A DNA stretch of 64,000 bases, taken from the sequence record NC_054921.1, one strand, 5' to 3'. Made by a program: the position numbers and the translations under genes. This DNA comes from Escherichia phage vB_EcoM_IME537. Shown here in pieces: positions 18,900 through 19,966 of this stretch (its first letter is position 1; each line of letters starts with the position of its first letter). Under the pieces are notes generated by a model that saw only the letters and a program-made list of their open reading frames with translations, ran no database searches and had not been told where the DNA came from.

Positions 18900-19760
18900 T
18901 TACACCGCCATTTTTCCTTTAATAGGAGGGTGTGATTCGTAACCTTTAAGAACGAAATCTTTAGGCCTGAGTTTAAGAACATATTCCAATTGTTCTTTAG
19001 TAGAAAGATAGCGGAATTTATAAGGCAATCCGCCTATTACCAGTTCACAAAGCTCTTTAGGTTCACGACGTAAAATTTCTTTACACTGTTCTATGTGATT
19101 CATATAGATATGAGTATTACCACCAGAAAATATCAAATCTCCTGGAATAAGATTACACATCTTAGCTACAATATGAACTAATGCAGCATATGATGCAATG
19201 TTGAATGGCAAGCCCAAGAACACGTCAACACTTCTTTGATACCACTGCAAATCCAAATAGCCATTACGCACATTAAACTGATAAAACATATGACAAGGTG
19301 GTAATGCCATATGTTTAAGTTCAGCTGGATTCCATGCTGAAACAATTTGACGCCTATCATTCGGCAGTTTTTTAATACGATCAATAACTTCTACAATTTG
19401 GTCTACACCGCCAAAATCACGCCACTGTTTTCCATAAATTGGACCAAGTTCACCACTATGATATCCTAAATCTTTTGCTTGATTTTCGTAATTTTCATCC
19501 CAGACTGTTTTGCCTTGAATTAATGAATCATGCTGAATTAATCGTAAATCATTTACGTTAGTACTTCCTGACAAAAACCATATTAGCTCAGCAATACAAG
19601 CTTTCCAGGCGAGCTTCTTAGTCGTTACTGCAGGAAAACCTTTAGTTAAATCCCAGCGTAATTTAGTACCGAACAAAGCAATTGTTCCTGTGCCTGTTCG
19701 GTCATCGGTTTCATAACCGTTTTCCAGGATATCTTTAATTAAAAATTGGTATTGTTTCAT
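18900..19760 (-). CDS. td: thymidylate synthase, uninterrupted (no intron)
   Basis: 286 aa from MKQYQ; continuous ORF including the PPCH active-site region. Confidence 0.95.
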   Translation of the reverse strand: MKQYQFLIKDILENGYETDDRTGTGTIALFGTKLRWDLTKGFPAVTTKKLAWKACIAELIWFLSGSTNVNDLRLIQHDSLIQGKTVWDENYENQAKDLGYHSGELGPIYGKQWRDFGGVDQIVEVIDRIKKLPNDRRQIVSAWNPAELKHMALPPCHMFYQFNVRNGYLDLQWYQRSVDVFLGLPFNIASYAALVHIVAKMCNLIPGDLIFSGGNTHIYMNHIEQCKEILRREPKELCELVIGGLPYKFRYLSTKEQLEYVLKLRPKDFVLKGYESHPPIKGKMAV

Positions 19761-19966
19761 TAGTTCATCCAAGAATATGTAGAAGGATATTTGGCAAAGT
19801 TAGGCTTATATCCTAATTTAACCATTTGTTTTGCTTTGCGAGTAAATCCTAAAGAACGCTCACCTTTAAGATATTGTTTTGGTGTCATAGGCCCTTGATG
19901 CATCTGCCGACAAATAAAAAGAGCCATAGCATTAGGAACATCCTTAACTTTTAATTTATTGCTCAT
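19760..19966 (-). CDS. hypothetical basic protein, 68 aa, occupying the frd/td junction
   Basis: ATG overlaps frd stop (ATGA); stop overlaps td ATG (TAATG). Confidence 0.55.

Follow-up and report, generated by a model that had tools for sequence, protein, structure and literature searches.

In phage T4, the genes for dihydrofolate reductase (frd) and thymidylate synthase (td) follow each other with overlapping stop and start codons. In the 64,000-nucleotide stretch of Escherichia phage vB_EcoM_IME537 analysed here (NC_054921.1; hereafter the window), a small open reading frame (ORF) of 68 amino acids (aa) stands between them, and this locus raises the question of what the ORF is, how it came to occupy the junction, and whether its product serves the pathway of its neighbours. 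On balance, we consider it probable, with some reserve, that the ORF is a stand-alone accessory gene of large virulent phages, inserted as a 206-bp unit and laterally exchanged, with a basic product acting as an early modulator. The gene is referred to below as B.

We analysed the two junctions of B with frd and td (Table 1). The frd stop codon TGA (19965-19963) and the ATG of B (19966-19964) form an ATGA overlap at 19966-19963, while the TAA of B (19762-19760) and the td ATG (19760-19758) have one base in common, in TAATG at 19762..19758. The sequence and the ORF list thus agree with the first-pass annotation of the window, which had placed the ORF precisely in the frd/td junction with both of these overlaps; the translation, with the C-terminal end YSWMN, was also the same. 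The direct overlap that this annotation gave for T4 was found in NC_000866, where frd lies at 145109-145690 and td ends at 145112, giving a 4-nt overlap with no ORF between. The presence of the same ORF in T4 itself, which had been named as the finding that would speak against an insertion, was looked for, and the T4 junction was empty. In the alignment with T4, the window carries 206 bp extra, from ATG to ATG, with the direct repeat AATGA at both ends, and AATGA is present in T4 as a single copy, tataaATGAaacaatacc. The length of 204 bp given earlier holds for the coding part of B but not for the indel, which measures 206 bp. This AATGA-bounded indel, with the overlaps kept on both sides, supports the earlier proposal of a precise insertion, and the junctions of B were identical in 13 T-even carriers.

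No promoter-like or terminator-like sites were detected within 19700-20050. Over 18800-21200 there were five promoter-like sites against 8.8 expected, none of them at the borders of B, and no terminators. Because no promoter or terminator lies in or beside B, the gene sits inside the frd-td transcription unit. The stop/start overlaps on both sides, without intervening transcription signals, represent the architecture expected of coupled genes in the frd-td operon, and frd, B and td are probably translated in this order by stop/start coupling.

Comparison with other phages indicated that this frame is a real gene, conserved at the protein level. The 68-aa protein matched phrog_9550 (PHROGs v4; annotated as unknown function) over its full length, residues 1-68 on profile positions 1-68 of 68, with an expectation value (E) of 1.3e-45 and 154.5 bits. 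Using tblastn, we identified the ORF in 236 phage records. When B was compared with diverged orthologues (Marfa, CIP9, 4S and two IMG/VR contigs), most substitutions were at third codon positions, and the ratio of non-synonymous to synonymous divergence (dN/dS) was 0.13-0.19 at a saturated synonymous divergence (dS) of 0.9-2.4. An RNA element at this position was ruled out by two results: the folding of the region was no stabler than that of shuffled sequences (z +0.98), and no Rfam family came near its gathering score.

Next to the window, we compared the frd-td region of T4, T2 and the RB phages, as the first-pass annotation had proposed; T4 was empty, and T2 and many RB phages held a different ORF. 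The frd/td junction is a polymorphic slot with at least three alternative states. The slot is empty, with the direct ATGA overlap, in T4, F1 and vB_EcoM_112 (Tequatrovirus), RB69 (Mosigvirus), WG01 (Dhakavirus) and ECML-359 (Gaprivervirus). It holds the 115-aa ORF RB32ORF229c (here A1) in T2, RB51, RB27, RB10, AR1, BECP11 and many others, and in T6 according to the AR1 annotation. It holds B in the window, in many Tequatroviruses and in JS98-type Dhakaviruses. Among 60 records drawn at even intervals from the 600 that matched, we counted 14 with B, approximately 31 with A1 and three empty, so the T4 arrangement is in the minority within Tequatrovirus. The textbook frd/td overlap of T4 is one state of a three-state slot, and the minority state in its own genus.

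A1 and B resemble each other as small ORFs without assigned function at the same junction, bordered by short direct repeats and less diverse than their flanks. In contrast, their sequences are unrelated, and in place of the overlapping stop and start codons of B, A1 has its own intergenic regions of 20 nt and 45 nt, with a Shine-Dalgarno sequence and a TATAAT-like element. A1 is flanked by a 9-bp direct repeat, TAAATGAAA, built from the junction sequence, as noted in the RB51 record; within this repeat, after the frd stop and upstream of A1, lies a vestigial td start (ATGAAA). Scans of A1 against NCBIfam and PADLOC gave no match. The A1-type ORF of pSe_SNUABM_01 (724-1071 of the stretch compared) is labelled 'putative glucose-1-phosphate adenylyltransferase', a label that looks doubtful given that NCBIfam gives no match for the homologous T2 protein.

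In Straboviridae further removed from the T-evens, the slot holds longer arrays. The order is frd-A1-A2-B-td in Enterobacter phage CIP9 (Kanagawavirus) and frd-A2-B-td in Klebsiella phage Marfa (Marfavirus) and Serratia phage 4S. T2 A1 is 44% identical to CIP9 gp061 (E 1e-30) and distantly homologous to Marfa gp176, CIP9 gp060 and 4S_00121; A1 and A2 are themselves distant paralogues. Throughout these phages, td is immediately preceded by B, and the stop and start codons overlap, as TAATG in T-evens, Marfa and 4S and as GTGA in CIP9; on its upstream side, B overlaps by ATGA or TAATG in Marfa, CIP9 and 4S.

Table 1. Positions of B, its flanking genes and repeats, and other features discussed in the text
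Feature	Position	Strand	Remarks
B, 68-aa accessory gene (phrog_9550 member)	19760..19966	minus	sequence and ORF list; ATG start
frd, dihydrofolate reductase	19963..20547	minus	sequence and ORF list; 194 aa counted from MIELVF
td, thymidylate synthase	18900..19760	minus	sequence and ORF list; 286 aa, intronless
AATGA direct repeat (5 nt), upstream copy	19963..19967	minus	bounds the 206-bp indel relative to T4
AATGA direct repeat (5 nt), downstream copy	19757..19761	minus	
A1 in T2	1025-1372 of T2 stretch compared		
A1 in RB51	724-1071 of RB51 stretch compared		
Gene 32 ORF	21960..23168	minus	402 aa against about 301; deletion point near 22275
nrdA, whole	15172..18340	minus	split
nrdA, N-terminal part	16907..18340	minus	477 aa
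nrdA, C-terminal part	15172..16161	minus	329 aa
HNH homing-endonuclease ORF	16151..16861		236 aa; between the nrdA parts
Second HNH endonuclease ORF	14441..15172		between nrdA and nrdB

To trace the history of B within the T-evens, we compared its divergence with that of its flanks. Between the window and JS98, which belongs to a different genus, nucleotide identity was 86.7% in frd, 98.1% in B and 76.6% in td, and dS was 0.56, 0.08 and >3, respectively. The high-identity block runs from ~19968 to ~19750, almost exactly the extent of B. Among 12 carriers (8 Tequatrovirus and 4 Dhakavirus), nucleotide diversity was 0.141 in frd, 0.017 in B and 0.135 in the 5' part of td, rising to 0.23 within td, with segregating sites at 196/567, 11/204 and 183/542 positions, respectively. 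The two genera differ by 0.215 over the final 100 nt of frd, by 0.026 within B and by 0.221 in td; the insert-free baseline between the same genera (T4 versus WG01) was 0.16 at each gene end, taken as the 50 nt of frd before the junction and the 50 nt of td after it. Since synonymous sites of B are free to change over longer distances, the low divergence reflects recent common ancestry rather than nucleotide constraint, and a divergence of 2.6% in B against 21-22% in frd and td argues for lateral exchange as a precise, AATGA-bounded cassette of 206 bp. Within Dhakavirus, JS98 (with B) and WG01 (without) are nearly identical around the slot, with a difference of 0.01 over the final 100 nt of frd and of 0.04 over the initial 100 nt of td, which makes this a clean and recent gain or loss of B.

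Empty junctions are seen in all four T-even genera and near-identical copies of the ORF in two, so that the simplest history has the empty state as ancestral to the T-evens and the ORF as secondary. B would then be a secondary, precise insertion into the ancestral ATGA frd/td junction, and the same allele would have passed laterally between Tequatrovirus and Dhakavirus. The recombination joints would lie a few bases from the ORF ends, with homology supplied by the short conserved gene ends and the AATGA start/stop motif. The B-td junction of the window, TAATGAAACAATA, is the same as in Marfa and 4S, as would be expected if the donor was a phage that already had B joined to td and the upstream joint formed at the ATGA motif. 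Some caveats attach to this history. The 12 carriers were picked by hand; precise deletion between the AATGA repeats could remake the empty state repeatedly; and the A1 insert also has a diversity trough, although a milder one (0.039 against 0.09-0.10).

The reverse history, with B ancestral at this position in every T4-like phage and lost by deletion from the junction of T4, we regard as doubtful. It gains from the td-adjoining orthologues in Marfavirus and phage 4S, which carry the junction sequence found in the window, and from the GTGA variant in Kanagawavirus. The AATGA repeats at both ends are the substrate expected for a precise deletion, and CIP9 carries A1, A2 and B together, from which the other states are derivable by loss. 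Against these points, the empty junction appears in the same sequence context in all four T-even genera, and the Tequatrovirus and Dhakavirus copies of the ORF are 97.4% identical, whereas the vertically inherited flanks are 78-79% identical, a difference that vertical retention cannot explain for both genera. The vestigial td start before the T2-type insert, retained in the 9-bp repeat, likewise indicates that A1 was inserted into an already empty junction.

We also analysed the protein family to which B belongs. Among 1.84 billion proteins, the family comprised 11 representatives at 50% identity, one of which, a 1402-aa match, was discarded as a eukaryotic tandem-repeat artefact. At 90% identity it comprised 40 clusters, all of 58-108 aa. 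The family is conserved at the protein level down to about 30% identity. The IMG/VR scan yielded 10 loci, too few for population analysis, and a scan of 185,579 species genomes of bacteria and archaea gave no member. By these searches the family is small and phage-only. Its distant homologues (~30-45% identity) come from large virulent phages, among them phAPEC8-like phages and two metagenomic ones, where they stand in arrays of small early genes and not near td or nucleotide-metabolism genes; they have no common neighbour and no A1- or A2-like partner. A conserved two-gene module of A2 and B was ruled out, as the distant homologues lack an A-like neighbour. Scans of the protein or family against Pfam, NCBIfam and PADLOC gave no match, no paralogue was present in the window or in the T4 region, and sequence searches of the PDB with two profiles gave only chance matches (E ~1).

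This distribution bears on the main rival as to function, a functional link to Td, in which the 68-aa protein would work with thymidylate synthase or the complex that synthesizes deoxynucleoside triphosphates, for instance as a Td-binding regulator or an assembly factor, and the coupling would ensure stoichiometric co-expression. We judge such a link to be unlikely. The position of the gene speaks for it: every Straboviridae carrier examined has B directly upstream of td with overlapping stop and start, and the overlap is kept even though its sequence has changed between TAATG and GTGA. However, the homologues in phAPEC8-like and other large phages stand away from td and nucleotide metabolism; T4, T2, RB69 and most T-evens make thymidylate (dTMP) without B; and the presence of B varies on near-identical td/frd backgrounds, as between JS98 and WG01. 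The 68-aa protein is probably not a component of dTMP synthesis. Most T-evens lack the gene, its homologues are unlinked to td, and it has recently spread onto diverged backgrounds, as selection on an accessory trait would produce; for these reasons, a role as an early modulator is preferred to one in dTMP synthesis.

As the first-pass annotation had stated, the product is basic: at 7.9 kDa, it has a calculated isoelectric point (pI) of 10.26 and, at pH 7, carries a net charge of about +10.6, and the whole family is strongly basic (pI 9.75-10.6). Structure prediction, which had also been proposed there, was run with AlphaFold2. A first prediction from 14 close sequences reached a mean predicted local distance difference test score (pLDDT) of 59.8; after distant members were added, the 28-sequence alignment gave a pLDDT of 86.2 and a predicted template modelling score of 0.65. 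This confident model has helices at residues 13-24, 29-39 and 43-49, followed by an extended aromatic C-terminal tail. R20, M48, G52 and P55 are invariant in the family alignment, and P11, K34, F41, L51 and Y53 are nearly so. The predicted three-helix core was compared with solved helix-turn-helix domains and was not structurally similar to them. The 68-aa protein is modelled with confidence as an orphan three-helix basic fold without known structural relative. We infer that the most likely binding partner of the product is a polyanion, nucleic acid being the simplest case, and that the protein would most likely be a dispensable early modulator of the host-takeover or counter-defence type.

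A bolder version, which we offer as a tentative and rather improbable extension, is that B is a positively selected or actively driven micro-cassette moving between T-even genera, with AATGA and a few conserved bases at the neighbouring gene ends as portable joints, and that its product is a nucleic-acid-binding factor of new fold giving an advantage against a host function or defence. If this were true, translational-coupling junctions would be modular attachment points for single genes.

The exchange of B may be set beside two known systems. The nearest mechanism described for T4-type genomes is recombination between promoter-early stem-loop (PeSL) cassettes, through which small ORFs are gained, lost and shuffled as modules (Arbiol et al. 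2010, PMC2839356). As with PeSL cassettes, small non-essential ORFs are gained, lost and replaced between conserved T4-type genes, with lateral transfer (PMC2839356). In contrast to them, the borders of B have no sigma-70-type promoter or stem-loop terminator, and consist of overlapping stop and start codons in a conserved metabolic operon rather than in a hyperplastic region. Since no such signals flank B, the PeSL mechanism is not applicable, and the modular exchange described here differs from that of the T4-type hyperplastic regions: a single gene of 206 bp can be swapped from one phage genus to another, its joints lying only a few bases from either end, with the coupling architecture unbroken. 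The second system is the group I intron of T4 td with its endonuclease I-TevI, which, like B, is a discrete insertion, patchy among T-evens and far more conserved than the surrounding coding sequence. Unlike the intron, B has neither ribozyme nor endonuclease and is a predicted translated gene, and its presence is independent of the intron, which is found in 6 of the 12 carriers; dependence of B on the td intron was ruled out on this count.

A further possibility is that B is a selfish passenger, which would owe its spread not to any use of its protein but to co-conversion when breaks are repaired that homing endonucleases of the neighbourhood have made (I-TevI in td, SegG near gene 32, and Mob-type HNH enzymes in and near nrdA). 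In its favour, B forms an island of near-identity in diverged flanks, as mobile introns do, and the region around it is rich in homing endonucleases. We nevertheless give this reading little credence. B is under purifying selection and is conserved in unrelated phages; its carriers are split evenly with respect to the td intron; and the near-identity stops short of the I-TevI site, with diversity rising within td. In addition, no nuclease domain was detected in Pfam, NCBIfam or PHROG scans, 68 aa are too few for one, and B has no paralogue among the endonucleases of the window. The weakest alternative, that the frame is a spacer, a td translation leader or an RNA element rather than a functional gene, could draw on the lack of a strong Shine-Dalgarno sequence of its own and on an upstream context that is that of T4 td, but is scarcely credible given the low dN/dS with free synonymous change, the protein-level conservation of the family, and the negative folding and Rfam results.

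With regard to the intron itself, td contains it in T4, SHFML-26, Shinka, PYps35T, G3G6 and D5505, while the td of the window does not. In PYps35T, G3G6 and D5505, the ORF inside the td intron is annotated as a homing or intron endonuclease. The td of GRNsp7 has an apparent short intron of ~250 bp without an annotated endonuclease ORF.

B as an accessory gene is not new, with roughly one in five sequenced T4-type phages already carrying and annotating it. The window itself, whose best matches are PD112, CE1, SH-1 and HY01 (~96-98% identical), is a mosaic Tequatrovirus. A 607-nt query centred on B was covered to at least 80% in 134 of 600 matching records, and 132 of approximately 136 T-even copies are at least 95% identical in protein to the product of B, many of them 100%. 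The Tequatrovirus copies of phrog_9550 are the same protein in the same frd/td position with the same overlaps, and the gene of the window is one more copy. In carriers it is usually annotated as 'hypothetical protein', examples being Shigella phage pSs-1, Escherichia phages EcNP1, IME339 and MN04, and Klebsiella phage Marfa (gp177); the original record of JS98 leaves it unannotated. A literature search on the frd/td junction, RB32ORF229c, phrog_9550 and the protein accessions found nothing relevant. The gene in itself adds little, as a catalogued hypothetical protein of T4-type phages; the interest that remains lies in the three-state slot, the very sharp borders of the exchanged cassette and the orphan basic fold, which, being compact, confidently modelled and strongly basic, lends itself to inexpensive functional screening, for example in binding assays or on host-defence panels.

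Two records of B call for comment. That of phage Shinka labels the gene (1032-1238 of the stretch compared) DUF4858. This label was not reproduced, as no Pfam family matched the window protein at E <=1 and DUF4858 was absent even from the weak Pfam matches of 28 family members; it looks doubtful. In Shigella phage sb4 (1001-2067 of the stretch compared), the annotation gives the 68-aa ORF in truncated form (1001-1162) and splits td into two coding sequences. The sb4 ORF has eight differences from that of the window, against zero to three in other Tequatroviruses, which suggests sequencing errors or decay.

Finally, two neighbouring regions of the window depart from the usual arrangement. Relative to T4, a deletion of ~76 bp removes the last codons of gene 32 (LDDLLNDL), its stop codon and the terminator hairpin, so that gp32 reads on in frame through what was intergenic sequence into frd.3 (ATG at 22189). 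The deletion was absent from all 497 matching phage records; it may be real, or may have arisen in assembly at the hairpin and poly-T run. The nrdA gene is split by an HNH homing-endonuclease ORF, and a second HNH endonuclease ORF lies before nrdB (Table 1); several relatives are annotated alike, with ribonucleotide reductase twice and homing endonuclease twice.
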